NCBI GenBank assembly: GCA_036496425.1
Contig: DASXLG010000202.1
Coordinates: 69 to 64,068, forward strand
Source: Terriglobia bacterium
GTDB lineage: Bacteria > Acidobacteriota > Terriglobia > 20CM-2-55-15
DNA: 64,000 bases
Direction of reading: 5' to 3'
The notes beneath the pieces were generated by a model. That model was given only the letters and a program-made list of their open reading frames with translations, did no database searches and was not told the DNA's origin. This document shows positions 10,971 to 62,553 of the stretch, piece after piece. Position numbers and translations under genes: made by a program. The stretch's first letter is position 1; the number at the start of each line of letters is the position of its first letter.

Positions 10971-11714
10971 TCAGGCGGCTTTTCGCGCGATCACCTGCAG
11001 TCGCACATAGTCTGCCGTCCATCGTCCCTGTTCGTCGCACAGCGACGGCCGCAGCAGCTCGACGATCTCCCTGACGATCCGCTGGCGCAGATCGCTGCCA
11101 ACGTTCGCCAGCACGGCGCCGCCGAAGGTCTCCAGCCAACCCTCCATGCCGGTGGGCAGCGGCGTCGGCCGCGGGAATAGCCGGATGTCGTCGACGGCGA
11201 GACCGCGCGACTCTAGCACGCGGCGGTAGTCCCCGGGCGCGGGGTAATACCACGGCCAGTCGATGTCGATGTGATACCGCGCGAGCACCGCGCGGATGGC
11301 GACGGAAATCGCCGCGACGTTGGTGTGGCCGCCGAGCTCGGCGACGAAGCGGCCGACCGGTTTCAGCGCGCGAACGATGCCGGCGGCCGCCGCATCGGCG
11401 TTCCGCACCCAGTGCAGCACGGCGTTGGAAAAAACGGCGTCGAACTCCCCGTCAAAGCTCAAGGCGGCGGCGTCCATCACGCGGGCATCGATGCCGAGAC
11501 CGCGCGCGGCGGCGACCATCTCGGCCGATGAATCGACGCCGACGACGGTCGCTCCCGACGCGATGATGTCGCGCGTGAGTGTGCCGTTGCCGCAGCCGAG
11601 ATCCAGGATGCGCTCACCCGCACGCGGCGCGAGTCGCGCCAGGATGTTCGCGCCGAGCGCAGGGACGAAGCCGGCGTTCTCCGCGTACTGTGATGGATTC
11701 CAGGGCTGAGACAT
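10971..11714 (-). CDS. class I SAM-dependent methyltransferase (trans-aconitate methyltransferase Tam-like)
   Basis: ORF trimmed to the internal ATG (11714), giving MSQPWNPSQYAENAGF..., which is the characteristic Tam N-terminus (M-x-W-N-P-x-x-Y). Carries SAM motif I (LDLGCGNG). Confidence 0.75.
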   Translation of the reverse strand: MSQPWNPSQYAENAGFVPALGANILARLAPRAGERILDLGCGNGTLTRDIIASGATVVGVDSSAEMVAAARGLGIDARVMDAAALSFDGEFDAVFSNAVLHWVRNADAAAAGIVRALKPVGRFVAELGGHTNVAAISVAIRAVLARYHIDIDWPWYYPAPGDYRRVLESRGLAVDDIRLFPRPTPLPTGMEGWLETFGGAVLANVGSDLRQRIVREIVELLRPSLCDEQGRWTADYVRLQVIARKAA

Positions 11715-12007: not shown

Positions 12008-13135
12008 CTAGGCGAGGGCTCTGCGTCTTCGCCGCGAAAGACCGGCGATCGCGATCAGACCGAAGAGACAACCTCCCGCGCCACCGATACCAGCAATCGC
12101 CATCCGGTCAGGACCGATCGGGGCATCTGGTAAAAAAGGCGGATCCACTATGACAAATTGCGCACCCTTTTGCCGGGTCTCCAGGTATTCGGTCATGCGC
12201 GCTTCTTCTAACCTGGCAAAAACCGACTTATACGTAGATTGAAGCATTTCGTAATCGAGAGCATGAACAATTGCGTCTCCTTTTCCGGTTCTTTCGGGCG
12301 AAAGGAGTTTGCTTTTTTCGGTGAGGCGTTTGCCCAGCTCGTCGAGTTGGACCTGAAGGAACAACACGCTGCCGTACACCTCCTGTTCGCGACTCTGGCT
12401 ACTCTGTTCCAAGAACAGCGTAACCAATTTGCTCGCGATCTTCTGAACCGTTTTAGGATCCCGTCCCACGAAGCGCAATGTGAATGCGATATTCCCGCTC
12501 TTTTCATATCCAGGATCGACGGTGATACTGATGCTATCCCGTATCTGCTGAACGCGTTGGTCGAGTGTTAGCCGGTCTTTCCCGGAATCGACGAGTGAGA
12601 ATTCCCGGATCAAGTTTACAAGGTTGGTGCGGCTCAGTAAGAGCTGCCTTGTCCCATCGAGCTGCTGAATGATGTGTGAACTTGTTGTCAGGCCAGGGGC
12701 GACAACAGCGGGTACATCCGCCGGTTTTGTGATTATCAACGCTTCCGATGCATAACGTACCGGCAAGAAAAAGGACAAACCGTATGCCGCCAACGCAAAG
12801 AGCGTGGTTGTCATAGTCAGCAGGGATTTCCAACCGCTGAACAGTGTGAAGAAGTTGCTCGGATGATCGTGCAATTCGGACATGCTGTCCTCATTAACCG
12901 CGCCAAAGGCGCTTCGGCGCGTAAAAGTTAAAGCAATCGCAAAGGCGAGTTTGCTTGGGCGGCTATGAATGGCCTTCAGTTCTGCCAGCCATTCTTCTTC
13001 CATGCGAAGCACCAGTGCCGGGGGCAGGCGGCGCGCGCGTGCCCGCACCAGCAATTCAGAAATAGCCGTCGCAGCAGCAAGGAGTGCGGCGCCAATAACC
13101 GTGAGTAGAACGATGACGATGACGATATCACTCAT
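12008..13135 (-). CDS. membrane protein with Wzz/PCP (polysaccharide chain-length determinant)-like periplasmic domain
   Basis: 375 aa: an N-terminal TM plus ~80-aa segment, then a Wzz-like domain (...LDQRVQQIRDSISITVDPGYEKSGNIAFTLRFVGRDPKTVQKIASKL...), a coiled region and a C-terminal TM (AIAGIGGAGGCLFGLIAIAGL). ATG at 13135 overlaps the PadR stop (ATGA). Confidence 0.65.
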   Translation of the reverse strand: MSDIVIVIVLLTVIGAALLAAATAISELLVRARARRLPPALVLRMEEEWLAELKAIHSRPSKLAFAIALTFTRRSAFGAVNEDSMSELHDHPSNFFTLFSGWKSLLTMTTTLFALAAYGLSFFLPVRYASEALIITKPADVPAVVAPGLTTSSHIIQQLDGTRQLLLSRTNLVNLIREFSLVDSGKDRLTLDQRVQQIRDSISITVDPGYEKSGNIAFTLRFVGRDPKTVQKIASKLVTLFLEQSSQSREQEVYGSVLFLQVQLDELGKRLTEKSKLLSPERTGKGDAIVHALDYEMLQSTYKSVFARLEEARMTEYLETRQKGAQFVIVDPPFLPDAPIGPDRMAIAGIGGAGGCLFGLIAIAGLSRRRRRALA

Positions 13136-13517: not shown

Positions 13518-14570
13518 CTATTTCGCCGGACGGCGCGACTCCCCGGGTACACGGGACGCCGTATAAGCGGCGATATCCAGCATGTCTTCCGCGCTCAGTT
13601 TCGCGACGACGGGTTTCATAAGGTCTGTCCACACACCTTTGCGGGTGCCGAGCTGCATATCGTGCAACTCACGCACGACATAACTTGGAGAGCGGCCTGC
13701 AATTCCGGGCACCGGGCCGAGGCCTTCGAGATCCGGGCCGTGGCAGACGCCGCACTGCGTTGTCTTGCCGGCTCCGGTTGTGACCAGCGCTTCACCTTTC
13801 TTGATGCTGCCCGGGGGAGCGTACGCGATGAAGCCGGAGCGGGGATTCCGCAGGCTCTCGGTGTCTTCTGTTTTCTCCGGCACTTCGATAATGCGCATGC
13901 CGATCGGCTCCTTGCCCGCCTGGTCGCCTTCGAGCATGAGGAACAGGCCGCCGGCGATGCGCGTTTTCGGCACGGTGTCGGCTTCGACGACGCGTATCCA
14001 TGGCGTCCACTTCATCGATGAGAAATAGGCCGCCGCGGCTTTGATTTCGTCATCCGTCATGGCTTTGGCAAAGGCGATCATCCGATTCGTGTTCGCCTTC
14101 CGAGTGTCGGCGCTCTTACGCAGGTCGTTCTTGAAATCCATCATCGTCTGCACGAAATACGAGTACGGTAAACCGGAGACACCCGCGTTTTCGGCGCGGC
14201 CTTTTCCATTCGGATAGTGGCAAAGGCTGCAGGCGTTGATCTGCGCGTCGCGCCTGCCGTGCGCGACGATGTCGGGCATTGGAGGATGGTCGCCAGGGAA
14301 CCAGTCGGCCGGGCCAAAACCATCGCGGATCTGAGCAAGCGTGAACGATCCTGTGCTCCCCGGGAGCTGATGGAGCGTTGTGTCGGGCGCCGGCGCGGCG
14401 CCGCTGCCACGGCCGCCCTGTCCGCCTCGTCCGCCCGGAGGTACGGCCGGAGCAGCGGTTGCCGCTGCAGGTCCGTCAAAACCGTAAGCCCACGGTGATG
14501 GCGCAGCGGGTTGTTGAGCAGCGAACGTCACTGCCACCAGAACGGACGTCAGAGCGACAAACTTCCACAT
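13518..14570 (-). CDS. di-haem c-type cytochrome
   Basis: 350 aa with a signal peptide and two CxxCH motifs (CSLCHY, CGVCHG). Confidence 0.8.
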   Translation of the reverse strand: MWKFVALTSVLVAVTFAAQQPAAPSPWAYGFDGPAAATAAPAVPPGGRGGQGGRGSGAAPAPDTTLHQLPGSTGSFTLAQIRDGFGPADWFPGDHPPMPDIVAHGRRDAQINACSLCHYPNGKGRAENAGVSGLPYSYFVQTMMDFKNDLRKSADTRKANTNRMIAFAKAMTDDEIKAAAAYFSSMKWTPWIRVVEADTVPKTRIAGGLFLMLEGDQAGKEPIGMRIIEVPEKTEDTESLRNPRSGFIAYAPPGSIKKGEALVTTGAGKTTQCGVCHGPDLEGLGPVPGIAGRSPSYVVRELHDMQLGTRKGVWTDLMKPVVAKLSAEDMLDIAAYTASRVPGESRRPAK

Positions 14571-14627
14571 AGGTTCCTCCCTTGAAACGATGTGGAAGAA
14601 GAAACCACAAAAGGCACAAAAAGCACA

Positions 14628-16412
14628 CTAATTTCGTGTTCCGGACAGACCGAGATAACCGAACCAGAAAACAATCGATGTTGCAAGCACGGCAATGCGT
14701 GCTCCATACCCGATACTGCTCGGGGAGACGAATCCTTCAATCAGACCGGCGAATATGAGCATGACCATCACTCCCAGCTCGATCGTCAGCGCGGAAACGG
14801 CCACGCGTCGCAGAGCCACGGCGCGGCGTACCTCCCCCGGAGCTATCACGGCGCGCGCCAGCATCAAACCGGCAGCGCCCGCAAGGGTGATGGCGAGCAG
14901 CTCTGTTCCGCCGTGCGGCATGATCCAGCCCCACAGCGACGAGCTATTGCCTTTCGACGTCATCCATCCGGCGACTGCTCCGAGTTGAATTCCGTTGGTA
15001 ATCAATACAAACGCCGTGCCGACACCAGCCGTCAATCCGAAAGCAAAAGAAAGCAGAGTGACCTGAATGTTATTCGTAAGAATTGTGGAAGCGACTACCG
15101 GCCGGGCAAGGGTCGGGATGTCATGCATCGATTCGCGGCGCGCGGGTTGAAAATCCAGGAACCCGGCGGGTACAAGGTCGTACCCGAGCTCCGGATGTAC
15201 CTGGACAGCGAAGAAGCTTACGAACGAAGGTCCGAACAGCAATAGGGCCGAAAGACCGACGGATCCAAGATGGCTCCGGACCGCGATCGGAAAGGCTTTC
15301 AGCCAAGAGCTTTTCGGGACCGGCTTGACGTCCAGCATTTTGCGATACAGAACCCCATGGGCCCGGACTGCAATGTTGTTGAGGTGGCGGACAACCGCCG
15401 AACTGCGTCCCATGGAACGCGCGCGCGAAAGGTCGCATCCCAGCGTCCGGTACTCCTCGATAATGCCTGCCAGTTCATCCGGTCTGAGACGCCAAAGGTC
15501 TCGCTTGCCTGCCCCTTCGAATCGCTGTATCCGTTGATTGAATTGCCGCCACTGCCGGCGTTTTGCATCCGCTGCGTCTTCAGTAACACCATCCGATGAA
15601 GCCTTCGGCGCGGAATCCGCAAGTTTCATGATTGTCTGCAGCGCCTGTTCGCAAATGTGAAACCGCTCCGGCCGCTTTTCGATTTCCTTCGGGTCCTCGC
15701 CGACTGCGGAAAGTAACGGGGACGCGATCCTCCATGCGAGCGCCTCGCGCTGCGCAACCGGCAAAGACTCGCGGCGAGCGAGAAACCGTTCAATAACCTG
15801 CATCGAGTTTGCCTCGATCCGCAGGCCGCCGGCCATGATTCCCGTCCGGACCCTGCCGCGCTCTGCTTTCAGAATCCATGTCGTACCCCAGCGCGATACA
15901 CGTTCAGTGGGTTCAAGCCTCGCAATGTCCACAACGACAATTGTTCCGGCCAGCAGGTCGCCAAGCCGCTTCCCCCTCTTCGAAATCAGGATCGCGAGCG
16001 CGCCCACCACGCATGCCGGGGGAGGAAGAGTATCTGCCACTCGAACCAGATTACGCAGAGCCGACTCGCGCCAGCCGACGGGCAGCCCGTCGTCTTTGAC
16101 GACGCGGATCCCGGCCCACTTCTTTCCGGGCGTTTGGCCGTTATTCAAAGCTTCAAAGAAGAGGAAATATCCCCATGTGACGATGAAGTAGGCGATCACA
16201 GCCACTGCAAGAACCCAGGAGCCTGTCGCTTGAGAACGGACGGTCAAGAGACCCGCAATTCCCATGACGACGGCAGCCAAAATCAAGACAATGACGATTC
16301 CCCCAATCAGCATCGAGTCTGCAAGCAGCGCCAAGAACCGTGAGCCGACGCCTGCGATGTCAAAATCGAGTTCAAAGTGATCGGGCGTAACGACAGAGAT
16401 ATGCTCATCCAT
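14628..16412 (-). CDS. RDD domain / stage II sporulation protein M (SpoIIM, DUF95)-like fusion membrane protein
   Basis: 594 aa. The N-terminus is RDD-like (..TPGKKWAGIRVV..) and the C-terminal ~200 aa are a SpoIIM-like multi-TM domain. Start overlaps the DUF58 stop by 1 nt. Confidence 0.7.
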   Translation of the reverse strand: MDEHISVVTPDHFELDFDIAGVGSRFLALLADSMLIGGIVIVLILAAVVMGIAGLLTVRSQATGSWVLAVAVIAYFIVTWGYFLFFEALNNGQTPGKKWAGIRVVKDDGLPVGWRESALRNLVRVADTLPPPACVVGALAILISKRGKRLGDLLAGTIVVVDIARLEPTERVSRWGTTWILKAERGRVRTGIMAGGLRIEANSMQVIERFLARRESLPVAQREALAWRIASPLLSAVGEDPKEIEKRPERFHICEQALQTIMKLADSAPKASSDGVTEDAADAKRRQWRQFNQRIQRFEGAGKRDLWRLRPDELAGIIEEYRTLGCDLSRARSMGRSSAVVRHLNNIAVRAHGVLYRKMLDVKPVPKSSWLKAFPIAVRSHLGSVGLSALLLFGPSFVSFFAVQVHPELGYDLVPAGFLDFQPARRESMHDIPTLARPVVASTILTNNIQVTLLSFAFGLTAGVGTAFVLITNGIQLGAVAGWMTSKGNSSSLWGWIMPHGGTELLAITLAGAAGLMLARAVIAPGEVRRAVALRRVAVSALTIELGVMVMLIFAGLIEGFVSPSSIGYGARIAVLATSIVFWFGYLGLSGTRN

Positions 16413-22231: not shown

Positions 22232-22380
22232 GTGTGAGCGACCCCCTGCCCGCGCTTGCGCGGGCTGTCCCCCTGTGTCAGGGGGACAGTCAACAGTCAA
22301 ACCCCAGCAACTATCCTCCTGATGCAGGCCTGATACAGGGGGATAGCCGGCCGCCAGGCCGGCAGGGGGTCGCTCACAAG
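22232..22380. repeat. nested palindromic element (CAGGGGG/CCCCCTG heptamers) filling a convergent intergenic gap
   Basis: Perfect 18-bp terminal inverted repeat (TGTGAGCGACCCCCTGCC ... GGCAGGGGGTCGCTCACA). Internal hairpins CCCGCGC-ttg-GCGCGGG and CTGTCCCCCTG-tgt-CAGGGGGACAG are also present. Confidence 0.6.
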
Positions 22381-22385
22381 GACTG

Positions 22386-23690
22386 TCAGTAGCGGTTCGC
22401 GACGGGGAGTTCTTTAGCCGGATATAACGAAATGATCTTTGCGCCTTCCGGCGTGAGCACGACCATTTCTTCGATGCGCGCGGCGGAGACTCCGTCCGTT
22501 GCGGGACAGAATGTTTCGACGGCGAACACCATACCGGCCTTCAGCTCGTAGGGCTCGACGAAGGAATTCAGCCGCGAAATCAATGGACGCTCGTGCAAGC
22601 CCAATCCCAGACCGTGGCAGAAATTCAGGCCGAACGCGGCCATTTCGGTTTCGAAACCGATGTCCGAAGCCTTGGGTAGCTGCTCGGCGGCTTTGTCCGT
22701 CGTAACGCCCGGCTTGAGCATTTCGATAGTGTCGTCCATCCACTGCCGTGCGCGTTTGTAGGCATCGCGCTGCGGGGCGGTCGAGCTGCCGACCGAAAAG
22801 GTGCGGTAGTAGCAGGTTCGATAGCCGATAAACGAATGGATGATGTCGAAATATGCCTGATCGCCGGGGCGGATCAGACGATCCGTGAAATTGTGCGGGT
22901 GCGGACTGCAGCGTTCTCCGGCAATCGAGTTGATGCCTTCCACGCAATCCGATCCCATTTCATATAGCCGCTTCGAGGCCAGCGCCACGATCTGGCTTTC
23001 CTTCACGCCGGGTTTCAATGCGTCGGCGATGTCGTGATACACGCCGTCGACCATGCTGGACGCGATATTCAAAAGCGTGATTTCGTCGTGGCTCTTCACT
23101 TCGCGCGCATACAGCATCATCTGCTGTCCGTCGCGGACTTCGATTCCTTCTTCCTGAAGCGCGAAGAGCATCGGTGGCTCGCACACGTCCAGACCGAGCG
23201 GCATGTCCGCGACGCCTTCCTTCTTGAGAATCTCTTTGATCTCCTTCGCGGCCGCCTTGAACAGACCCACTTCGGGACCGATCGCGCCTCGCATGCCCGG
23301 ATTTCCCGCACGGACATGGTCCTCGTGCAGCCACGGACAGTAAATACGGTGATGGCGGGCCGCCGAACCGAAATCCCAGACCCACGGATCACCGGTTCCC
23401 GTCAGCAGGCAATAGCGGATCAGCTTGTCGCGAGCCCACTCACCAATAACGGTGCTCGAGATGTATCGGATGTTGTGCTGATCGAAGCAAAGCATGGCGC
23501 CGAGATCGGACTTCCCGAGCGATTCGCGCGTGCGCGCGAGGCGGTATCGATGAAGGCGGCGGAACTCCACCCGCTCTTCAAAATCCACCTGAGTAATTCC
23601 GGGCGCCTGCAGCGGGCGGTGCCAGCGATGCGCGGGCTTGAGATCGTCTTCATTAACGGGCAGAAATTCCGGTCTGTTCGACTTCTTCAT
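22386..23690 (-). CDS. M24 family metallopeptidase (Xaa-Pro peptidase / creatinase-like)
   Basis: 434 aa: a creatinase/prolidase-like N-terminal domain plus a pita-bread M24 C-terminal domain. SD before the ATG. Confidence 0.75.
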   Translation of the reverse strand: MKKSNRPEFLPVNEDDLKPAHRWHRPLQAPGITQVDFEERVEFRRLHRYRLARTRESLGKSDLGAMLCFDQHNIRYISSTVIGEWARDKLIRYCLLTGTGDPWVWDFGSAARHHRIYCPWLHEDHVRAGNPGMRGAIGPEVGLFKAAAKEIKEILKKEGVADMPLGLDVCEPPMLFALQEEGIEVRDGQQMMLYAREVKSHDEITLLNIASSMVDGVYHDIADALKPGVKESQIVALASKRLYEMGSDCVEGINSIAGERCSPHPHNFTDRLIRPGDQAYFDIIHSFIGYRTCYYRTFSVGSSTAPQRDAYKRARQWMDDTIEMLKPGVTTDKAAEQLPKASDIGFETEMAAFGLNFCHGLGLGLHERPLISRLNSFVEPYELKAGMVFAVETFCPATDGVSAARIEEMVVLTPEGAKIISLYPAKELPVANRY

Positions 23691-24853
23691 TAGAGCAACT
23701 CCGCTGGCTTGCGAATCGCTTCGGCCAGATCGTTCAGAAACATTGCGCCTTGAGCGCCATCGATCACACGATGGTCGCCGGATAATGTCAGCGTCATCAT
23801 CGGCCGCACAGCGGGCTTTCCATCCACGGCGACGACGCGGTCGGCGATGCGGCCAACCGCGAGGATTGCCGCCTGGGGCGGCAGAATGATCGCGCTGAAC
23901 GCATCGACGTTATACATGCCGAGATTCGTAATCGTGAACGTTCCGTTCGCCACATCCGAAGGCTTCAGACGGCCGCCGCGCGCTCGCTCGGTGAGATCTT
24001 TCCGCTGCTGCGCGATGCCCGGGAGCGAAGCCGCGTCGGCGTTGGGAATGACTGCTCCGACCACACCGTCCGTCACCGCCATGGCAAGACTGATGTTGAT
24101 GTTCGGGTTGAGGTGGATGCCGTTCCGGACCCAGCTCGCGTTGACCTTGGGATGCTTCTTCAACACGCGCGCGGTGAGTGAAACAAGGAGATCCGTAATG
24201 GTGACTTTATCGCGGCCCTGTTTTTCACGGGTTTCGAGCAGCGCTGTGGCATCGAGATCGCGAACAAGGAAGAAATGAGGAACCTGAGTCCAGCTCTGCG
24301 TCGTGCGCTCGGCCATGAGACGCGCGACGGCGCTGAGCGTGGCGGAGGCTGAAGTGGCGCCCGCGAGGACGTCGTCACTGATAATCGTGCCGGCGGGACC
24401 GGAGCCTTTCAGCGACCCGAGATCGACACCCTGCTCTTTAGCAAGCCGCCGCGCCTTCGGAGAAATCTGGGCGCGCGGGGACGAATCAGGGGTCGCACCC
24501 CCAATTCCTAGGTTTCGGAATTCGGGGTGCGACCCCTGATTCGTCCCCGATTTCGGGCCGGTAATTTTTCTGGCGGAAGGAGCCGCAGTGCCGGAGTCGG
24601 CCGGGGGCGTCTCGCCGGGAGCGACGATCCAGGCGATCGTCACGCCGACCGGAACGACATCACCCTCCTGAGACTTGACGCCGGCGAGCACACCGTCCGC
24701 CGCCGCTTCCACTTCCACGACGGCTTTGTCCGTCTCGATCTCGAGAATCGGCTCGCCCTTACTGATGGCATCGCCTTCTTTCTTGAGCCACGAAACGATC
24801 TTTCCCGTTTCCTGCGCCATTTCCAGCGCAGGCATCACTATGCTGGTTGCCAT
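23690..24853 (-). CDS. 2-oxoacid dehydrogenase complex E2 (dihydrolipoamide acyltransferase)
   Basis: Lipoyl domain (EIETDKAVVEVEA), PSBD (ISPKARRLAKEQGVDLGSLKGSGPAG) and a catalytic domain ending DHRVIDGAQGAMFLNDL. Confidence 0.9.
   Translation of the reverse strand: MATSIVMPALEMAQETGKIVSWLKKEGDAISKGEPILEIETDKAVVEVEAAADGVLAGVKSQEGDVVPVGVTIAWIVAPGETPPADSGTAAPSARKITGPKSGTNQGSHPEFRNLGIGGATPDSSPRAQISPKARRLAKEQGVDLGSLKGSGPAGTIISDDVLAGATSASATLSAVARLMAERTTQSWTQVPHFFLVRDLDATALLETREKQGRDKVTITDLLVSLTARVLKKHPKVNASWVRNGIHLNPNINISLAMAVTDGVVGAVIPNADAASLPGIAQQRKDLTERARGGRLKPSDVANGTFTITNLGMYNVDAFSAIILPPQAAILAVGRIADRVVAVDGKPAVRPMMTLTLSGDHRVIDGAQGAMFLNDLAEAIRKPAELL
24477..24548. repeat. 72-nt perfect palindromic element lying in-frame inside the E2 linker
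   Basis: 25-bp perfect stem (GGGGACGAATCAGGGGTCGCACCCC / GGGGTGCGACCCCTGATTCGTCCCC), a 6-bp inner stem (AATTCC/GGAATT) and an 8-nt loop. Length is 72 nt (24 codons). It encodes the linker segment between the lipoyl domain and the PSBD. Confidence 0.7.
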
Positions 24854-28712: not shown

Positions 28713-28719
28713 AACCTTT

Positions 28720-28807
28720 ATTGGAGATTCGAGATTGGAGGTTGGAAATTAGAAATTTGCGGCACCGAAAATTTCCAATTTCCAACCTCCAATCTCGAAT
28801 TTCCAAT
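28720..28807. repeat. AT-rich palindromic element, copy 1 (TTGGAAATT family)
   Basis: 38-nt arms with 2 mismatches (ATTGGAGATTCGAGATTGGAGGTTGGAAATTAGAAATT ... AATTTCCAATTTCCAACCTCCAATCTCGAATTTCCAAT) and a 12-nt loop. GC about 33% in a ~60% GC background. Sits between the stop at 28712 and the ATG at 28828. Confidence 0.7.
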
Positions 28808-28827
28808 AAGTTTATAGGAGTTAAAAC

Positions 28828-30024: not shown

Positions 30025-30027
30025 CTA

Positions 30028-30104
30028 CTGGAAATTCGAAATTGGAAGTTGGAAATTTCTTATATAAGAAATGAAGCAACCTCCAATTTCGAATTTCCAA
30101 TAAG
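30028..30104. repeat. AT-rich palindromic element, copy 2 (TTGGAAATT family)
   Basis: CTGGAAATTCGAAATTGGAAGTTGGAAATTTC ... GAAATGAAGCAACCTCCAATTTCGAATTTCCAATAAGTT. Shares the arm sequence and the 3' end (CGAATTTCCAATAAGTT) with copy 1, in the same orientation. Confidence 0.7.
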
Positions 30105-34805: not shown

Positions 34806-34859
34806 AGGGTCGCACACCTGAATTCCCGAATTCGAATTCGGGAGTTCAGGTGTGCGACC
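34806..34859. repeat. 54-bp near-perfect palindrome (GGGTCGCACACCTGAATTCCCGAATTC|GAATTCGGGAGTTCAGGTGTGCGACCC)
   Basis: 27-bp arms with a single G-U wobble and no loop. It overlaps the last codons and stop of the GT2 gene, and ends about 10 nt before the MetE-like start. Coordinates are +/-1. Confidence 0.65.
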
Positions 34860-36279
34860 CCCTCCGCCCCATGCGCCCCACATTCCGCGCGAAGCGGTCC
34901 CAACTCCTATCGCCGCGGAGAAATTGCACGACGCCTTTTGCGTTCGCATACACGAGGATCGGCCGATAAAGCAGCAGATCCAGCGGCGCAATCAGCGCCA
35001 TTCGTGTCAGCGCGCTCACCCGGTAATAGTGGAAGGCCGATTCGTTCAACCACAAACTGATCTCCGACATGATTCCGAGCGCAAGCACCTGAATCCCGAG
35101 CAGGGAAAAGAACTCTTTGAGATCCACCAATCGCAGCCAAAGCCCAAGACCCAGGGAAGCCAGGACGATCAACTGTACGAATGGCCCGAAACACTCGGAA
35201 ATAATCAAATACGGTAACCCGACAAACCCGAGCGCGCCGTAACGTGGCCGGAATAGAACTCTTCGGTAGTGCCACACCGTCTCCAGGATCACGCGCTGCC
35301 AGCGCGCCCGCTGGCTGATAAGCGCTGTAAGCCGCTCAGGGCCTTCGGTCGCCCCCACGATATCGGGAAGCGACAGGACGCGGCCGGGCCTCTTGTCGCG
35401 CTTGTACCTCTCCAGAACCCGGACTGTCATTTCGAGGTCTTCGCAGGTGAAAGCGGGCGAGAAGCCTCCAACCTCGAGCACGACGTCACGGCGCCAGATG
35501 GCAAAAGCCCCGCTGGCGCACAGCATGATGTTCATGCGGCTCCATGCCAGGCGATTGTTGAGAAATGACCGAAGAATCTCCAGGTGCTGGAAGTTGATCC
35601 AGAGATGCCGATCGATGTTCTTGTTTCCGATTTCGCCGGCCTCCTCCTGAAGTTCATGCCGGACGGCAACAATGCTGGTAATACCCAGCACTCCGGCCGG
35701 ATCTTTAATCGCCGGGCGCATCGCAACCAGCAGCGCATCGGGTTCGTATGCCGCATCGCCGTCGACGCAGCAGATATAACGGTCGCGCGCGAAGTTTACT
35801 CCGCAGTTCAACGCGTCGGCTTTGCCGCCGTTGCATTTATCGATGACGATCAGCCGTGGATCGGTCCGGCTGCGATAAATAGCACGCACGGGGCTGGTTT
35901 GCAGGAGCCGCCGCGCTGTCACACTGACCGACTGCAAGACGAATTCCCGGCGAAGTGCTCCAAGCGTTTCGTCTTTTGATCCGTCGTTAACGACGACAAT
36001 TTCAAATTCCGGATACTCAAAGGCCAGGAGCCGGCGCACCACCGCTCCAATCATGCCCTGCTCGTTGTAGACCGGGACAATGACGGAGACGGGGATGGTG
36101 AAGCGCGAATCCGACAACGCATCATAATCGTCCGTATGCGACTCGGCCGTACGTCTCCGGTTTTCCAACATGGCGACAATGGCCATGAACAGAGTGAAGG
36201 CGTAAAGCAGCATCAGGTATGCAAAACTGAGCAGAAAGGTCCAATCGAAGAATGGTCTTAGCGCGAGCCCTGAAATCAT
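34846..36279 (-). CDS. family 2 glycosyltransferase, processive synthase type (PgaC/IcaA/BcsA-like)
   Basis: 477 aa with N- and C-terminal TM segments. Carries the GT2 DxD and QxxRW-type blocks (...VNDGSKDET..., ...QRARWQRV...). Confidence 0.85.
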   Translation of the reverse strand: MISGLALRPFFDWTFLLSFAYLMLLYAFTLFMAIVAMLENRRRTAESHTDDYDALSDSRFTIPVSVIVPVYNEQGMIGAVVRRLLAFEYPEFEIVVVNDGSKDETLGALRREFVLQSVSVTARRLLQTSPVRAIYRSRTDPRLIVIDKCNGGKADALNCGVNFARDRYICCVDGDAAYEPDALLVAMRPAIKDPAGVLGITSIVAVRHELQEEAGEIGNKNIDRHLWINFQHLEILRSFLNNRLAWSRMNIMLCASGAFAIWRRDVVLEVGGFSPAFTCEDLEMTVRVLERYKRDKRPGRVLSLPDIVGATEGPERLTALISQRARWQRVILETVWHYRRVLFRPRYGALGFVGLPYLIISECFGPFVQLIVLASLGLGLWLRLVDLKEFFSLLGIQVLALGIMSEISLWLNESAFHYYRVSALTRMALIAPLDLLLYRPILVYANAKGVVQFLRGDRSWDRFARNVGRMGRRGSHT

Positions 36280-43571: not shown

Positions 43572-43663
43572 TCTGTAGTCGCGGACTTTAGCCCGCGTTC
43601 CGCCCTCGCCCGGCAACATAGTGGTCGAGACTGGAACGCGGGCTGAAGCCCGCGACTACATCT
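43572..43663. repeat. ~92-nt inverted-repeat element (TGTAGTCGCGG...CCGCGACTACA arms)
   Basis: ~29-nt arms with 3 mismatches, separated by ~30 nt. Each arm also contains an internal GCGGGCT..AGCCCGC hairpin. Confidence 0.55.
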
Positions 43664-55556: not shown

Positions 55557-58502
55557 TTACGGCGCCGGCACGAGCACGCGAACCGTCGTTCCCTGGACCG
55601 GACCGGTGAGAAGCTCGAACTGTGCTCCGATCTGGCTGGCACGCTCGCGCATGCCTGTCAGACCGTAATGCCCGGCCGCGGGGCCGGCGGCATCGGCCAG
55701 GCCCTTGCCGTCGTCCTGCACCGTTAAGCAGATGGAGTTCTTTGCGAAGCGCAAGCCCACTTCAATCGTGGTGGCGTCCGCGTGCCTGGTGGAATTGGCG
55801 ATCGCTTCCTGAGCAATCCGGAGCAGATGTCCTTCGACACTCGCCGGCAGGTGAGAGGGACCGCGATCGAGCTTGAGTTTGAGCTGAATATCTTTGCTCT
55901 TCGTGATCTGACGGGCAGTCTCCGCGATTGCGGCTTGAAGCTCCGCGTCTCCGCCTTTGACGGCGCGCAGGCCGGCAATGGATTGCCGCGCTTCTCTCAT
56001 GCATTGCGCGGCGTCCCGGATCAACTCATTCAATCGGCTTTGGCCCTGGCCGGCAGACAGACCTGTAGAGATCGCCTGCATTCCCATCGTGATGCCGGAA
56101 AAGCCTTGCAGCAATGTATCGTGAAGCTCTCGGGCAATGCGGCCGCGTTCAGCCAGTACGATCTCGAACTGCTGCCGCAGGCTCCGGACACGCATGTGCC
56201 AGACAAGCCAGGCAACAAATAAGAGGCCGGCGCCGCAAAGTGGAAAGAACCAGGCGCGCTGATAGTAATAAGGAGCGAGGCTGAACGCGACCGCGCTCCC
56301 GGATTCATTGCACAACCCATCGACGTTGCACGCGATCACACGGAACTGGAATTTGCCCGGAGGCAGATTCGTGTAGTAAGCGTCGCGCCGCGTGGAAGCG
56401 TCGGTCCAGTTTGTATCGTATCCTTCGAGCTTGTAGCGGAAGCGGATTCCGGCAGGCGCGAGGAAACTCAACGCCGTGTAGCGAAACTCCAGATCCTTGC
56501 GGCCCGCCGGTGCCGATCCAATAGCAGCCGGGGCTTCCTTCCGGCTATTCACGATGACGTCCTCGATAACGACCGGCGGGGCCGGCGCGTTGCGCTGCAG
56601 CTTCGCCGGATCGAGCACGAGCAGACCGCGAATGGTCGCAAACCAAAGCGTTCCATCCTTCATCTTCCACACGGCAGGCTGCACTCCGGATCTGCTTTCA
56701 ATGGTTCTCAGACCGTCCAGCGGGCTGTACGGCGTGCTGACGAATTTCTGAATTTCGCCCTCGGCAAACTTCCGCAGATCCGATCGATTCACTGAAAAGA
56801 TGCCTTTGCTCGATGCCATCCAGAGCCGGTCCTGGCTGTCCTCCGCAATGCCGTAGATTTCGTTGTCGAACAGGCCGTCCCGCATGAAATAGCTGGAGAC
56901 TTTTCCATCCTTCAACAGGCGCAGGCCGGCGCCCAGCGTTCCCATCCACAGCAGGCCCTCCTGGTCGACGAAGAACGTATCGACCTCGCGCAACGGTATA
57001 TCGGATGGAGCAAACTCGCGGAAGGCGTGGTCCTGATAAATCTTCAGGCCGGCTTCGGTCGCTGCCAGAAAATGTCCGGCCTTGTCCTCGCCTCCCGCCA
57101 CGGCGGACAGCCGTGAAGCATCTTTCGGCTGGATGAATCTGCCGTTCACGAACATGCTGAGGCCTGAAGGCGTTCCAATCCAGAGAGCGCCGGCGTGATC
57201 GTGGAAGAGAAACCGGATGTGATTGTCCGCGAGTCCCTGGTCGCGCGTGTAAGTTTCGACGACGCTGCCGTGTCTGAGCAGATTGAGCCCAGCGTTGGTT
57301 CCGACCCAGAGGTCTCCGGCGGGATCTTCCGCAAGGGCATAGATTTCATTTCCAGCCAAGCCCTGCTTCGTCGTGAGCACGGTGAGGTGCCGGGCATCGT
57401 CAAACCGGCAGAGGCCGGCGCCGATCGTACCGACCCAGACGGTGCCGTCGCGGTCTTGAAGGACCGGACCGACGTCGTTCGTCGGCAGGCCTTCGCTGAC
57501 GGTATAAGGAATGGTCCGGCCCTCAAGAAACTGATTCAGTCCGTGCTTCGTTCCAGCCCAAAGGCTGCCTTCGCGGTCTTCGTACAGCGAATAAACCGTG
57601 CTCTGGGACAGGCCGTCTTCGGTCCGATAACTTTCGAACTTCCCGTTGCGGAACCGGCTGAAGCCGCTTTTGGTGCCAATCCACAGCGTCCCGTCGCGGC
57701 CTTCGATCAGGGAGTAGATCCAGTTATCGGGGAGGCCGTCCTTCACGGTCATCAGATGTTCACGTCCGCCGGCGAAGCGGATCAAGCCGTTCGTGGTGCC
57801 GGCCCACACGGCGCCGTCATCGGAACACAGGAGGGCGCGAATATCCCCATATTCGGGCATCGACGTCAGCGGGTGATTAATAAAGGAGGAACCGTTCCAG
57901 GAACTCAGACGATTGCCGTCTCCGCCCACCCACAATGTGCCGTCCGGAGCCTCACATGCCGAGCGGACATTATTTGAGGGCAACCCTTGAGGCATGCCGT
58001 ACATCGTCAGTTTCCCTTGATTCAAACGAGCGAGGCCGGTAGACGTACAGGCCCAGATGTTTTCATTGCGGTCCTGCAACAAACACTGCACGGTCGAACG
58101 CTGCGGTTCGTCCTTCTGCAGGTATTGCGTCGCCACACCGTTTTCCAGCCGGATGAGGCCGGCCTCGTTTGTGCCGACCCAGAGGTTGTGGTGCTTGTCT
58201 TCCAGAATGTTCCGGACCCATGCGCCTTTCAGCGGCGGCTGGGCCGCCGGCGACGTGCTGGCCATTTCCGAGAAACGGACGCCGTCGAAACGGACAAGGC
58301 CCGCTTCGGTTCCAAGCCACAAATAACCGTCGTGGGTTTGCAGGATCGATGTGATCGTGGCGTCGGGCAACCCCTGCGGCGCCTGCCAGATACGATGCAC
58401 ATATTGCGTCAGTGCGCGGTTGGGATCGAGCGCGAAGGCCGGGATGCAGAGAAAGAGCAACAGCAGGACACCGGCCAGCGAAAGGCATTTTGGACGCAGC
58501 AT
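55557..58502 (-). CDS. sensor histidine kinase with periplasmic two-component-regulator beta-propeller + Y_Y_Y domains
   Basis: Trimmed to the ATG at 58502 (signal/TM MLRPKCLSLAGVLLLLFLCIPAFA). Multiple Reg_prop repeats (..GLW[VI]GT..), then a TM, HisKA_3 and HATPase_c. Confidence 0.85.
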   Translation of the reverse strand: MLRPKCLSLAGVLLLLFLCIPAFALDPNRALTQYVHRIWQAPQGLPDATITSILQTHDGYLWLGTEAGLVRFDGVRFSEMASTSPAAQPPLKGAWVRNILEDKHHNLWVGTNEAGLIRLENGVATQYLQKDEPQRSTVQCLLQDRNENIWACTSTGLARLNQGKLTMYGMPQGLPSNNVRSACEAPDGTLWVGGDGNRLSSWNGSSFINHPLTSMPEYGDIRALLCSDDGAVWAGTTNGLIRFAGGREHLMTVKDGLPDNWIYSLIEGRDGTLWIGTKSGFSRFRNGKFESYRTEDGLSQSTVYSLYEDREGSLWAGTKHGLNQFLEGRTIPYTVSEGLPTNDVGPVLQDRDGTVWVGTIGAGLCRFDDARHLTVLTTKQGLAGNEIYALAEDPAGDLWVGTNAGLNLLRHGSVVETYTRDQGLADNHIRFLFHDHAGALWIGTPSGLSMFVNGRFIQPKDASRLSAVAGGEDKAGHFLAATEAGLKIYQDHAFREFAPSDIPLREVDTFFVDQEGLLWMGTLGAGLRLLKDGKVSSYFMRDGLFDNEIYGIAEDSQDRLWMASSKGIFSVNRSDLRKFAEGEIQKFVSTPYSPLDGLRTIESRSGVQPAVWKMKDGTLWFATIRGLLVLDPAKLQRNAPAPPVVIEDVIVNSRKEAPAAIGSAPAGRKDLEFRYTALSFLAPAGIRFRYKLEGYDTNWTDASTRRDAYYTNLPPGKFQFRVIACNVDGLCNESGSAVAFSLAPYYYQRAWFFPLCGAGLLFVAWLVWHMRVRSLRQQFEIVLAERGRIARELHDTLLQGFSGITMGMQAISTGLSAGQGQSRLNELIRDAAQCMREARQSIAGLRAVKGGDAELQAAIAETARQITKSKDIQLKLKLDRGPSHLPASVEGHLLRIAQEAIANSTRHADATTIEVGLRFAKNSICLTVQDDGKGLADAAGPAAGHYGLTGMRERASQIGAQFELLTGPVQGTTVRVLVPAP

Positions 58503-58538
58503 ATTACGATTCGATCTTACTGCCGTTCGCGAAACACG

Positions 58539-58628
58539 AAAAGGGGAAGGAACGCAAGAAGCACAAAAGGCACAAGAAGGGCGGGTCTTTCTTGTGCCTT
58601 TTGTGCTTCTTGCGTTCCTTCCCCTTTT
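58539..58628. terminator. perfect 40-bp-stem hairpin (purine-rich / pyrimidine-rich arms) immediately after the GspS-like stop codon
   Basis: 58539-58578 (GAAAAGGGGAAGGAACGCAAGAAGCACAAAAGGCACAAGAA region) pairs perfectly with 58589-58628, with a 10-nt loop. On the minus-strand transcript it is followed by CCUUUUCGUGUUUCG. The hairpin ends 36 nt before the HK start codon. Confidence 0.5.
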
Positions 58629-59760
58629 ACCGAAACAAGTGCGGGACAAACCGGCTGAGGTTCGTGGTGATCGGGCCGTCGGACTCGCGAATTCCCATAC
58701 CGCAGGCGCCTTGATCGATCACGTACCAGCTTCCGACAACCGGATAATTCCCCTCAAACGCCGGAATATGTGCAGCGGCCTGATACACGAACGCGCCGTC
58801 GCCGTAGTTCCCGGGCGTGTTCACGCGCGGGCCCGAACTGCCGACGAGCGTGACGTTCGCGCCTTCACGCGAATAGAGCGGCTTGCGGATGTAGTCGACC
58901 ATCAATCCGGGATTGTCGATGTGCGCTTCGAGCAGCAGCGGATGCTGGGGAAACAGTTCCCAGAGAATCGCGAGGATGCCTTTGTTCGACGCAACCATTT
59001 TCCAGATGGGCTCGATCCACTGCATCGCGGAATGCGTGTCGATCAGATGCTGCGCGAAGGCTTCGCCGAGAAGCCACTCCCATGGATACAGCTTGTAAAT
59101 GCTGTGAATGCGATTGCCGGCAAGATCTACGAAACACTCGCCGTTCCATCCGATCTCGGCAACGGTCAGCGCCTCGGTTTTGTAGCCCGATTGCTGAGCG
59201 AGGTCGCGGAGATATGTCACCGTCATCATGTCTTCCGTATCCGCGGCATGCGTGAAATATAGAGGCGAGCCGTCGATGTAGTTCACCAGCTCCGTGAACT
59301 TCGCCAGAAGCTTTTCGTGGATGGAATTGAACTGATCGCAATTCTTGTGCGTGTCCTGCAGCCAATACCATTGAATGATCGAAGCTTCCAGCAGAGCCGT
59401 CGGCGTGTCGGCATTGAATTCGAGCGCTTTGATGGCGCCCTTGCCATCGTAAGCAAGGTCAAAGCGCCCATGCAGCGCCGGAGGCTCCTGGTTCCACGCC
59501 GATATGATGAGCGGCACAGCGGCCGCCGGAATGCGCAGCTCGGCGAAACGGTTTTGATCGATCACGCGCTGAATCGCCGCAAGCCACATGTTCCATAGCT
59601 CATTCGTCGCCGCTTCGAGCGCATCGACTTCTTTCGCAGTGAACTCATAGAACACGGACTCGTCCCAATAGCGCTGGCCGTCAGGCGTGTGATAGATCAG
59701 CCCCTGAGATTCGACGGCGGATCTCCACGACGCGCGCTCGGGTTGTTGTTTCCGGATCAT
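58627..59760 (-). CDS. glutathionylspermidine synthase family protein (YjfC-like ATP-grasp amidoligase)
   Basis: Trimmed to the ATG at 59760 (MIRKQQPERASW...). GspS pre-ATP-grasp and ATP-grasp blocks are present and there is no CHAP amidase domain. 377 aa. Confidence 0.8.
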   Translation of the reverse strand: MIRKQQPERASWRSAVESQGLIYHTPDGQRYWDESVFYEFTAKEVDALEAATNELWNMWLAAIQRVIDQNRFAELRIPAAAVPLIISAWNQEPPALHGRFDLAYDGKGAIKALEFNADTPTALLEASIIQWYWLQDTHKNCDQFNSIHEKLLAKFTELVNYIDGSPLYFTHAADTEDMMTVTYLRDLAQQSGYKTEALTVAEIGWNGECFVDLAGNRIHSIYKLYPWEWLLGEAFAQHLIDTHSAMQWIEPIWKMVASNKGILAILWELFPQHPLLLEAHIDNPGLMVDYIRKPLYSREGANVTLVGSSGPRVNTPGNYGDGAFVYQAAAHIPAFEGNYPVVGSWYVIDQGACGMGIRESDGPITTNLSRFVPHLFR

Positions 59761-60281: not shown

Positions 60282-60297
60282 AGTTTGCCCTCCAGGG

Positions 60298-62553
60298 TTG
60301 AGTTTCAGGATGTTCGCTTATTTCTGGATGCCGTACAAGGAAAGAGGAGACAGAATACTGGCGATGACTACGCGTATTTTCGCTCCAACGATCTTTCTGA
60401 GCGCCTTTCTGCTGTTCTGTTTCGAGCCGATGATCGGCAAAATGATGCTGCCACTGCTCGGCGGCGCGGCGGCCGTCTGGATCACGTGCCTTCTGTTTTT
60501 TCAATTGATGCTGCTGGCGGGGTACGGGTACGCGCTGGTGCTGGAGCGTTACCTGCCGGCGCGCGCGCAGATCATCGTGCATGCGGTGATGATGGTCGCG
60601 GTGCTTTTCTTTCTTCCGATCCATTTCGTGACTCGGCCGGACGAAGCGGCCTCCATCAATCCTTCGGGCTGGCTTCTCTGGCAGCTGGTGAAGTCCGCGG
60701 GCATTCCGTTCGGCATCGTATCGACGACGGCGCCGCTGCTTCAGGCCTGGCTCACGAAGACGAAGGCGGCTGCGGCGCGCGACCCTTACTTCCTCTACGC
60801 GATCAGCAACGCGGGAAGCCTGATCGCACTGGTCGCCTATCCGCTCTTGATAGAACCGCGCATCGGCGTGCGGGAACAGACATGGTTGTGGTCGACGGCG
60901 TACGCGCTGCTGGGCGCAATGCTGATTGCGGCGGCAGCGGTCGTCTGGAAGACCGTTTCAAGCCCTTCCCAGGAAGCGACCCCATCGGTGACGGCGGAGA
61001 TACCGTCCTGGCGGCAGCGATTGTTCTGGCTGGCGGCGGCGTTCGTGCCGTCGGGTTTGATGCTGGCCGTAACGAATCACATTCTGCTGAACCTGGCGTC
61101 CGTGCCGTTTCTATGGATTCTTCCGCTTGCCGTTTACCTGATGACGTTCATGGCCGCCTTCGGACGAAAGATCCACATTTCCTCGAAGGCTGTTTCCGCC
61201 GCAGTGCCTGTCGTTCTGCTCCTTCTGTTTCCCTTCGCCGCCACCAGCCGCGCTGTCGACGTTAAATTCCTGCTGCCGCTCATTGCGGTGCACATGTTGA
61301 TTCTGGCCGCAGGCGCGCTGCTGTGTCATACGGCGCTTGCGGCGCGGCGGCCGGATCCGCAGCACTTGACGGAATTCTATTTCTGGATCGCGCTGGGAGG
61401 CGTGCTGGGCGGCGTCTTCACGGCAGTCCTGGCGCCATTCATGTTTCGGACGGTGATCGAATACCCGCTGCTTGTGGCGGCGATCGCATTTTTCCGCGAA
61501 CCGGGGGAACCGAAAACAGAGATCAACGGCGGTGATTTGATTTTTCCCGCGGTGCTGGGCTTCGCGGTGATCGGTGCTTCGAAGCTGTTGCGGTCGCATG
61601 GCGTGAACTTCACCTCGGATCTCTGGACAAGCATCGGCCTGGACATCGTCATCATCCTCTTTGCCTACCTGCTGCGGCATCGGGTGTTCCGCTTCGGCGT
61701 GGCAATGGCGATTCTGATTTTCGCTTACCAGCGTCTGCTGCCTCAGTTCTTCGGAGGATCGGAGTTCATCTACATGGCCCGGGATTTCTTCGGCGTGAAA
61801 GGCGTGAAGTACGACTTCAACACCAACTCACGCCGGTTGCTGCACGGCGACACGCTGCACGGCATCGAGAGCCAGGATCCGGATTTCATCGGGCACCCCG
61901 TCGCTTATTACGATCCGACCGGACCTGTCGGCGATGTCATGGACATGTTGAGCGAGCGTGGGGGTAACCAGCACGTCGGCGTGGTGGGATTGGGAACCGG
62001 CAGCATGGCAGGATGGACCGCTCCCTCGCGCCACATCACGTTCTTCGATATCGACCGGCAGATGATCGACATCGCGATGAACTACTTCACCTTCCTGCCG
62101 AGCTGCGGGAAGAACTGCGATGTGATTGTCGGCGACGGCCGCCTGTCCATCGAGAAAGCCAATGCCGGAGAATTCGATCTCCTGATGCTGGACGCGTTCA
62201 ATTCCGATTCGATTCCCGCGCACCTGGTCTCGCGCGAGGCGATCCGGATGTATCTGACGAAACTCAAGCCGGACGGGTTCCTGTTGTTTCACGTCTCAAA
62301 CCGGTACATGGACGTCGAGGCGCTCATCTCTGCCGTGGTGACGGATGCGAACCTGGAGGCCCTCGTCCGCCACGACGATGAACAGCAAAATGACCTCAAA
62401 GCCAGGTCACACTATATCGTTGCGGGCCGGAATGCCGCGGCTCTCGGCGCCTTGGAGCATGACGCCAACTGGATGAAAGTCAAGAAACCGGACAACGTCG
62501 CCGCCTGGACCGACGACTATTCCAACATGCTGGCCATTCTGCGCTGGCATTGA
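60298..62553 (+). CDS. polytopic membrane protein fused to spermidine-synthase-like (PABS) domain
   Basis: 751 aa. About 450 aa of TM helices, then an aminopropyltransferase-like domain (GVVGLGTGSMAG...DVIVGDGRL...DLLMLDAFNSDSIPAHL). Confidence 0.8.
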   Translation: MSFRMFAYFWMPYKERGDRILAMTTRIFAPTIFLSAFLLFCFEPMIGKMMLPLLGGAAAVWITCLLFFQLMLLAGYGYALVLERYLPARAQIIVHAVMMVAVLFFLPIHFVTRPDEAASINPSGWLLWQLVKSAGIPFGIVSTTAPLLQAWLTKTKAAAARDPYFLYAISNAGSLIALVAYPLLIEPRIGVREQTWLWSTAYALLGAMLIAAAAVVWKTVSSPSQEATPSVTAEIPSWRQRLFWLAAAFVPSGLMLAVTNHILLNLASVPFLWILPLAVYLMTFMAAFGRKIHISSKAVSAAVPVVLLLLFPFAATSRAVDVKFLLPLIAVHMLILAAGALLCHTALAARRPDPQHLTEFYFWIALGGVLGGVFTAVLAPFMFRTVIEYPLLVAAIAFFREPGEPKTEINGGDLIFPAVLGFAVIGASKLLRSHGVNFTSDLWTSIGLDIVIILFAYLLRHRVFRFGVAMAILIFAYQRLLPQFFGGSEFIYMARDFFGVKGVKYDFNTNSRRLLHGDTLHGIESQDPDFIGHPVAYYDPTGPVGDVMDMLSERGGNQHVGVVGLGTGSMAGWTAPSRHITFFDIDRQMIDIAMNYFTFLPSCGKNCDVIVGDGRLSIEKANAGEFDLLMLDAFNSDSIPAHLVSREAIRMYLTKLKPDGFLLFHVSNRYMDVEALISAVVTDANLEALVRHDDEQQNDLKARSHYIVAGRNAAALGALEHDANWMKVKKPDNVAAWTDDYSNMLAILRWH

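Follow-up and report, generated by a model that had tools for sequence, protein, structure and literature searches.

The closest described counterparts of the hairpin reported here are extragenic palindromes. REP and BIME elements of Enterobacteria and Pseudomonas, together with the GTAG/CGTC REP super-families (Di Nocera et al. 2013, PMC3733652), lie outside genes, often at 3′ ends or between cistrons, and occur singly or as inverted dimers. Their unit is an imperfect palindrome of 20-40 bp, they reach tens to hundreds of copies, and they come with a cognate RAYT. REP/BIME elements can stabilise the upstream mRNA, and they turn over between relatives. A second set is found in the Acidobacteria, where the TIR repeats of Koribacter, Terriglobus and Acidobacterium are paired with TIRYT Y1 transposases (PMC3733652). 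These inverted-repeat units are single, dimeric or grouped, are not necessarily self-complementary, and share a GGGGWSAS motif. Intergenic arrays of 7-10-nt units with skewed composition are represented by the STRR heptamers of heterocystous cyanobacteria and by the TAACTGA repeats of Beggiatoaceae (PMC4679880). Intrinsic terminators, including bidirectional ones, sit just past a stop codon and combine a stem of about 5-14 bp and a loop of 3-8 nt with a G/C-rich base, a U-rich tail and a 5′ A-tract. Finally, template switching during replication can give rise to a perfect stem, or mend one, in a single event (PMC8794818); the documented stems are mostly of a few to ~20 bp and lie in RNA genes (Monttinen and Loytynoja 2022, PMC8794818).

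The locus described here draws on several of these systems. It lies in a 64-kb stretch of DNA from an uncultured Terriglobia bacterium of soil type (64,000 nucleotides, hereafter the window), and we file it as an extragenic palindrome/terminator built from a tandem-repeat array. The hairpin is unusual in size and most likely ordinary in kind, probably a member of a clade-specific palindrome family that evolves fast and here marks the end of an operon. The fuller form of this reading, to which we assign a probability of roughly 0.55, is that of a real, lineage-specific extragenic palindrome, a ‘dimer’ of a low-copy 9-nt-repeat family, that acts as the terminator and insulator at the end of an operon. 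The features of the locus are as follows.

58589 to 58628, minus strand: 5′ arm of the transcript, purine-rich and T-free, AAAAGGGGAAGGAACGCAAGAAGCACAAAAGGCACAAGAA; begins with the AA of the GspS TAA stop
58579 to 58588, minus strand: 10-nt loop, AGACCCGCCC on the transcript; RNAfold adds one or two pairs
58539 to 58578, minus strand: 3′ arm of the transcript, pyrimidine-rich and A-free, UUCUUGUGCCUUUUGUGCUUCUUGCGUUCCUUCCCCUUUU
58555 to 58580, plus strand: degenerate 9-nt tandem repeat in the arm, ~2.8 copies, lag-9 autocorrelation 19/31, holding the 14-nt core CACAAAAGGCACAA
58528 to 58542, minus strand: U-rich tail, made of the UUUU of the terminal stem and CGUGUUUCGCG, with 7 U in the 11 nt past CCCC
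58530 to 58536, plus strand: left copy of the 7-nt direct repeat CGAAACA, 2 nt from the arm
58631 to 58637, plus strand: right copy of CGAAACA, 2 nt from the arm and within the last GspS codons
60281 to 60066, minus strand: DUF350 gene, first gene of the operon
60065 to 59757, minus strand: 102-aa ORF, second gene of the operon
58627 to 59760, minus strand: GspS-like gene (PF03738, E 1e-137, 377 aa), last gene of the operon
55557 to 58502, minus strand: downstream sensor kinase gene (Y_Y_Y / HisKA_3), with its ATG at 58502, 36 nt past the hairpin

The two arms (58539-58578 and 58589-58628, 40 nt each) are 100% complementary across a 10-nt spacer that reads GGGCGGGTCT in one orientation and AGACCCGCCC in the other, which reproduces exactly the 40/40 pairing, loop and coordinates of a preliminary description of this DNA. 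That description had called one arm about 85% purine, and counting bears it out: the 5′ arm on the plus strand contains A22 G12 C6 T0. Both TRF and autocorrelation resolve the arm into a degenerate 9-nt tandem repeat with the unit GCACAAAAG, which has no T, and the purine/pyrimidine asymmetry of the arms follows from this unit. On the minus strand, a 108-nt stretch has a predicted RNA folding energy of −77.2 kcal/mol, against −28.0 +/- 3.1 kcal/mol for shuffled sequences (z = −15.8); the corresponding values are −78.6 kcal/mol for plus-strand RNA and −51.5 kcal/mol for single-stranded DNA. In a 191-nt context the stem remains dominant, and no alternative fold competes with it, which speaks against the attenuator that had been among the earlier candidates. 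When the 3′ regions of 47 genes in the window were folded, none proved as stable as that of GspS (−77 kcal/mol versus −37 +/- 8 kcal/mol for a coding control). No other match to an arm with up to 3 mismatches occurs in the 64-kb window, where 0 are expected, and this is the longest perfect hairpin among 1.63 Mb of non-redundant loci examined. The match count, the fold z-score and this length rank together exclude a chance origin, as had been supposed. Its 40/40 pairing also exceeds that of every other palindrome examined here, which reach 84-97%. A search of the whole window against Rfam 15 gave 0 matches at the gathering score; the sub-threshold matches were eukaryotic miRNA precursors, that is, generic long hairpins. 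BLAST of the hairpin against phages and plasmids returned no match.

The hairpin stands between two blocks of genes on the same strand. Upstream, the ATG of GspS overlaps the TGA of the preceding ORF (ATGA), and the DUF350/102-aa ORF/GspS block is kept in three relatives (L084, L085 and L094). The GspS TAA stop (58629-58627, minus strand) overlaps the outer two bases of the arm, so that the palindrome does begin at the stop codon, as first described. Downstream, the kinase is followed by a response regulator and then by an RND efflux system. Neither a consensus scan nor reading by eye found a sigma-70-like promoter in the 36-nt gap between hairpin and kinase. At the far end of the operon, the orthologue of a 728-aa gene found in the relatives (60298-62553, spermine-synthase-like) lies 16 nt from the divergent DUF350 start (gap 60282-60297). 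In two relatives (L094 7985-9423; L091 3185-5224) the local order is the 728-aa gene, a hairpin, a metallophosphoesterase gene, and then DUF350/x/GspS or the kinase; the window's counterpart of this neighbourhood lacks the metallophosphoesterase gene. Gene order around the locus is fluid among relatives.

This fluidity extends to the hairpin site itself. Among GTDB species genomes scanned with GspS, the best match is only 57% identical and provides no orthologous intergenic region; metagenomes hold GspS proteins with 93-79% identity to that of the window, and three further relatives (P0002, P0006 and P0010) were compared by gene tables. The gene after GspS differs in every relative, placing a synteny break at the operon end. 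Comparing the intergenic region across relatives had been proposed as a check on the hairpin, and it finds the element absent from all four sites. In L086 (GspS 93% identical) 64 nt of unrelated sequence follow the stop; in L094 (89%) other genes come after GspS; in L084 (84%) a convergent gene begins 20 nt after GspS; and in L085 (81%) the position is taken by a different palindromic repeat (GCTGGTAACCACC...) that recurs at four other intergenic sites on the same contig. Orthologues of the kinase, for their part, have different upstream neighbours (L091, 85% identical; L092 and L093, 80%). In L092 and L093 the kinase orthologue begins 11 nt after the upstream gene, a spacing that implies expression by read-through. 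The junction at which the hairpin sits is thus particular to this lineage, and the element shows no conservation at that place. The GspS stop is in the same position as in close homologues, all of which end in PHLF plus 0-1 residue. An insertion history in which the ancestral GspS ended in HLFRERQ* was considered and set aside as uneconomical for that reason. The resemblance (GGAAGG..CG) between the first arm bases and the 3′ UTR found in the 93% relative is not long enough to be informative.

Elsewhere in the clade, the sequence of the arm does recur. The preliminary description had proposed a search for similar purine-rich perfect hairpins in the genome, and within the 64-kb window this was half successful: the core is found again, in a single arm without an inverted partner.

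14598 to 14630, plus strand: single-arm relative of the hairpin, GAAGAAGAAACCACAAAAGGCACAAAAAGCACAC, with the 14-nt core and period 9, between two minus-strand genes

The core CACAAAAGGCACAA lies here at 14606-14619, in a period-9 run (CCACAAAAG GCACAAAAA GCACAC). A 15-bp hairpin on the minus strand (14562-14598) comes directly after this single-arm copy; its loop displays an SD-like AAGGGAG, its 3′ arm includes the ATG of gene 13518-14570, and it may be a translation-masking structure. In a relative (L094/L095, 8007-8067), the 14-nt core is present in both arms of a hairpin with 27-bp arms, GGAATTAGCCACAAAAGGCACATAAGG / CCTTTTGTGCCTTTTGTGGCTAATTCC, and at the orthologous site in L091 a near-identical core with one extra A is present in a single arm only. 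The outer ends of the arms also agree (GGGGAA...), with the copies differing between outer end and inner core, and the resemblance of the window hairpin to that of L094 therefore spans the whole arm. The L094 hairpin adjoins the 728-aa gene, whose 75% identical orthologue in the window (60298-62553) is beside the DUF350 gene; the two hairpins accordingly occupy one neighbourhood, and they may conceivably descend from one ancestral element by local rearrangement. The 64-kb window contains 2 loci of the family and relatives have 1-2, and copy number appears low as judged from these sequences; no parent element was seen. An nhmmer profile of the family found no members in ~160 kb of clade loci beyond those used to build it, and a 20-nt segment of the arm, scanned against metagenomes, gave two unrelated single matches only, a weak negative given that the collection does not hold the source contig.

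The position and the borders of the hairpin suggest what it may do. The stem base GGGGAAGG/CCUUCCCC (GGGG/CCCC) has AAAA as its 5′ flank and UUUU as its 3′ flank; past the stem, the minus-strand transcript reads UUUUCGUGUUUCGCG. The hairpin is thus on the coding strand just past the last gene of an operon, and UUUUCGUGUUU follows the CCCC of the stem base as a U-tract; the 7 U in 11 nt correspond to the moderately U-rich tail noted earlier, and the hyper-stable terminator, one of the candidates named at that stage, gains from all three features. It does not have the dimensions of a short-stem terminator. At 40 bp, the stem is three- to fourfold longer than is typical, it has 45% G+C and a 10-nt loop, and only its basal 8 bp are G-rich. 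A simple terminator consensus scan, which has a loop limit of 8, did not call it. In the mechanism we propose, RNA polymerase would transcribe the DUF350/102-aa/GspS operon and the 40-bp stem would form immediately after the stop codon. The G/C-rich base (GGGGAAGG/CCUUCCCC) followed by UUUUCGUGUUU would then serve as a Rho-independent terminator. With termination at this point, the GspS operon would be insulated from the operon of kinase, response regulator and RND system that starts 36 nt downstream, and its transcript would keep a 3′ end protected by the stem. In transcripts that read through, the 40-bp perfect duplex would be a substrate for RNase III, and cleavage would part the two blocks of cistrons. 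RNase III needs roughly 20 bp of dsRNA, and the predicted helix, perfect over 40 bp where at least ~20 bp of regular duplex are called for, makes such a site structurally plausible. Both termination and cleavage are inferred here from position and fold.

The proposed terminator role belongs to this copy alone, which has the A4/U4 frame, and does not extend to the family as a whole. In L094, the related hairpin (8007-8067) lies between divergent gene starts and has no U-tract, which argues that the family is not a terminator by nature. Insulation by the window copy is also likely to be leaky. Some read-through is to be expected from a kinase that has no visible promoter and starts 36 nt away, and whose orthologue in L092 is expressed by read-through; the promoter gap argues either for substantial read-through or for a promoter type that is invisible to the scan.

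The perfection of the stem bears on its origin. The 40/40 match and the absence from the 93% relative indicate that the stem is young or is kept uniform. Such pairing would result from a recent inverted copy of one arm, or from homogenisation of one arm by the other, through template switching during replication, and we consider this origin most likely and selection base by base less so. Single-arm copies exist, 14.6 kb into the window and in L091, and the contrast at an orthologous intergenic site between L091, with one arm, and L094, with both, fits an origin by inverted copying. The flanking CGAAACA repeat could be a target duplication, a footprint of template switching or chance; a flanking repeat of this kind occurs at 0.39% of random positions (p about 0.004), and it was noticed after the fact.

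Four other explanations compete with an operon-end terminator of a low-copy repeat family. The preliminary description had itself raised a palindromic chimera of the assembly. Palindromes are a known failure mode of assemblers, and short-read contigs do break at the hairpin. Yet the same hairpin lies within a 78.6-kb JGI contig (L001; 3300036801, Ga0376675_0000196) with unique sequence on either side, and proteins 100% identical to the flanking GspS and kinase are encoded on a 614-kb contig of a Terriglobia MAG at NCBI, whose bin includes protein HEY2382423.1. The breaks are themselves informative. A de Bruijn graph with k = 31, which we take to be the value used for the Logan contigs, must break k−1 = 30 nt into the arms of an inverted repeat of at least 31 bp. 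Exactly this is seen in independent runs: contigs L002 and L003 (SRR11833919 and SRR11835574) stop 30 nt into the 5′ arm, and L090 (SRR11833919) opens with the last 30 nt of the 3′ arm. Both arms, with the same outer borders, must therefore be present in the reads of SRR11833919; in SRR11835574 the break is seen at the 5′ arm only. The 78.6-kb contig and these breakpoints in another sample make an artefact very unlikely, and we give it almost no weight. Also improbable is an element that works as DNA, whether a cruciform or recombination site, a protein-binding palindrome such as a kinase operator, or a triplex-forming purine/pyrimidine tract. A perfect inverted repeat can extrude as a cruciform, the hairpin sits at a synteny breakpoint, and every copy places the pyrimidine-rich form of the core 30-75 nt upstream of a gene start, an argument from orientation that rests on two single-arm cases only. 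Arms of 40 bp, though, far exceed those of any operator. Pfam scans of 15 ORFs in the window and precomputed Pfam assignments for the genes of L001 revealed no recombinase or transposase around the hairpin, against the recombination site once suggested. The idea of H-DNA or of a purine/pyrimidine-specific protein fares no better: the symmetry is inverted and not mirror, six C interrupt the purine arm, its longest pure purine run is 14 nt, and the T-free 9-nt unit is a simpler cause of the asymmetry.

The remaining two alternatives carry more weight. If both operons were co-transcribed, the hairpin could be a processing or dosage element, in which an RNase III cut or a block to 3′-5′ exonucleases sets separate stabilities for the two cistron blocks, much as REP elements between malE and malF set differing mRNA stabilities. 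The duplex is far longer than RNase III needs, only 36 nt with no recognisable promoter precede the kinase start, and in L092 and L093 the kinase orthologue is expressed by read-through. The U-tract, by contrast, argues that many transcripts end at the hairpin, and the GspS-kinase junction is lineage-specific, which would make any coupling recent; we regard this role as unlikely. A stronger competitor, if still on the unlikely side, is a selfish or neutral mobile palindrome without a selected role, such as a miniature transposon or a TIR/REP-like dimer moved by a Y1 transposase of RAYT/TIRYT type or by another transposase. CGAAACA stands at the same 2-nt offset on both sides, as a target duplication would, members of the family are scattered over unrelated loci, some with one arm and some in dimeric form, and the site lacks the element in close relatives. 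Acidobacteria are reported to have TIRYT transposases whose TIR repeats are single, dimeric or grouped (PMC3733652), and another palindrome of this genome lies in frame within a gene, which is typical of mobile palindromes. Against mobility, a total of ~160 kb from four related genomes yielded no more than three loci. No copy has the outer ends of the window hairpin, and the L094 copy has no flanking duplication. The arm carries neither a GTAG/CGTC tag nor a GGGGWSAS motif, and no transposase is present among the neighbouring genes tested. As the stop position matches that of relatives, an insertion of 101 nt into the end of the gene is also not the most economical history. Absence from the 93% relative fits a neutral or selfish element and a recently gained terminator equally well. 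What favours the operon-end terminator is its placement on the coding strand after the last gene, its framed G/C-rich base and its U-rich tail.

Long palindromes are common in this genome and its relatives, and three sets of them were catalogued in the window.

28718 to 28809 (41-45-nt arms) and 30026 to 30102: heptamer-armed hairpins, with arms of (GGAGATT)n
24476 to 24549, 34807 to 34860 and 10172 to 10205: palindromes of the GGGTCGCACCCC/GAATTC family
43574 to 43660: GTAG-tagged REP-like pair, starting TGTAG

The hairpins at 28718, 30026, 34807, 43574 and 10172 are just past stop codons, and most of the palindromes in these three sets lie directly after stops or between convergent genes. 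The mismatches of the 28718 hairpin, one G-U and one A-C, are uninformative as to which strand is selected. In related Terriglobia, heptamer-armed hairpins of the form (AGAATTG)n...CATCCGAGGG are present in L091 (3199-3321), L092 (4595-4657 and 677-724) and L094 (9320-9374). With arms of up to 50 nt, and placed at gene ends or between genes, the heptamer-armed hairpins form a dispersed family across these genomes. The palindrome at 24476-24549 is a 74-nt member of the GGGGTCGCACCCC/GAATTC family with 33-nt arms that are 97% complementary. It lies in frame within a 2-oxoacid dehydrogenase E2 gene (23690-24853, minus strand), at a position within the linker that joins the lipoyl domain (residues 5-75) to the E3-binding domain (130-163), and its translation there is ...GTNQGSHPEFRNLGIGGATPDSSP...; in this it resembles the in-frame palindromic RPE insertions of Rickettsia and intragenic REPs. 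Pairs that start with (T)GTAGTCGCGG...CCGCGACTACA occur in the window (43574-43660), in L094 (1436-1504) and in L091 (4900-5020), and they are consistent with the GTAG-tagged REP super-family (PMC3733652). The ORFs that neighbour the window pair have no Pfam match, and no RAYT gene was seen beside it. The palindromic repeat of L085 is a composite of GCTGGTAACCACCGTT..GGTGGTTACCAGC and CGTAGCTCGA/TCGAGCT, present at five intergenic sites in 21 kb (1296-1413, 2695-2799, 6065-6115, 11150-11250 and 13049-13134), one of them just past its GspS. A short palindrome, CTGTCCCCCTG..CAGGGGGACAG, is found at gene ends in the window (22265-22289) and in L092 (18343-18404 and 21659-21714), and makes up another small conserved hairpin family.

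A more distant case shows how such stems can be maintained. A contig of a Gemmataceae-type MAG (L011, 6911-6996) carries a 39-bp near-perfect hairpin with arms of 10-nt repeats, (CACGGATGAA/CACAGATAAA)n, at the 3′ end of a metallophosphoesterase-like gene. Compared with its orthologue in L013 (1-78), whose flanking genes are 80% identical, 7 arm positions differ, and 5/6 of the scorable differences are double and preserve the pair, which argues that pairing in this kind of element is actively kept. The outer end TTAGCCAC / GTGGCTAA(TTC) is the same as that of the Terriglobia hairpin in L094 (8007-8067), a likeness that could reflect chance or a wider family. A link between TTAGCCAC-ended hairpins and adjoining metallophosphoesterase genes was considered and rejected, the L011 and L094 proteins not being orthologous (E = 0.1).

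Taken further, these cases allow a tentative generalisation that we hold to be possible, on balance doubtful: Terriglobia and, independently, Gemmataceae may carry an undescribed ‘inverted short-tandem-repeat’ class of hairpins, with skewed 7-10-nt units and a complementarity that arises by template-switch copying from arm to arm and not by point compensation. Such elements would arise, disappear and give way to others at a fast pace, whether at operon ends, in 5′ regions or inside protein linkers, and the 40-bp hairpin would be the cleanest and youngest example of the arm-copying process. The narrower reading of an operon-end terminator has consequences of its own. If it is true, a very strong operon insulator was gained in one mutational step at a fresh gene junction, which would be a small, concrete case of template switching creating a functional RNA stem. 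The locus also points to families of palindromic repeats that have yet to be charted in Acidobacteriota, for which hardly any transcript-level data exist. Such repeats bear on gene calling, as the in-frame palindrome of the E2 gene illustrates, on assembly, where contigs break at them, and on the prediction of transcription units. The hairpin alone overturns nothing known about terminators or repeats.

Set against the described systems, the hairpin shares some traits with each, and in its proposed action it resembles an intrinsic terminator or a 3′ stabiliser of REP type. Like REP and BIME elements, it is an extragenic palindrome at a 3′ end, and its two arms recall their inverted dimers. It differs in its apparently very low copy number, in having no known RAYT, in an arm that, being T-free, cannot pair with itself as a REP unit does, and in arm ends, AAAAGGGG and ...CAAGAA, without GTAG or CGTC. 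The TIR families come from the same phylum and have units that likewise need not be self-complementary, whereas their shared motif is unmatched by the arm end found here (GGGGAAGG) and no transposase accompanies the hairpin among the window genes tested. With STRR and TAACTGA repeats it has in common an intergenic array of short, skewed units; those arrays are mostly direct, whereas the array here has an inverted copy of itself as its pairing partner, and the two form a long perfect stem. It matches intrinsic terminators in its place just past a stop, its G/C-rich base, its U-rich tail and its 5′ A-tract, and departs from them in a 40-bp stem, a 10-nt loop, 45% G+C and an arm sequence from a repeat family that also occupies non-terminator positions. 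In its proposed mode of origin it parallels template-switch hairpins, with which it shares a perfect stem confined to one lineage, a single-arm state among relatives (L091 vs L094) and a direct repeat at its border, on a stem longer than most of those documented and placed at the end of a protein-coding operon.
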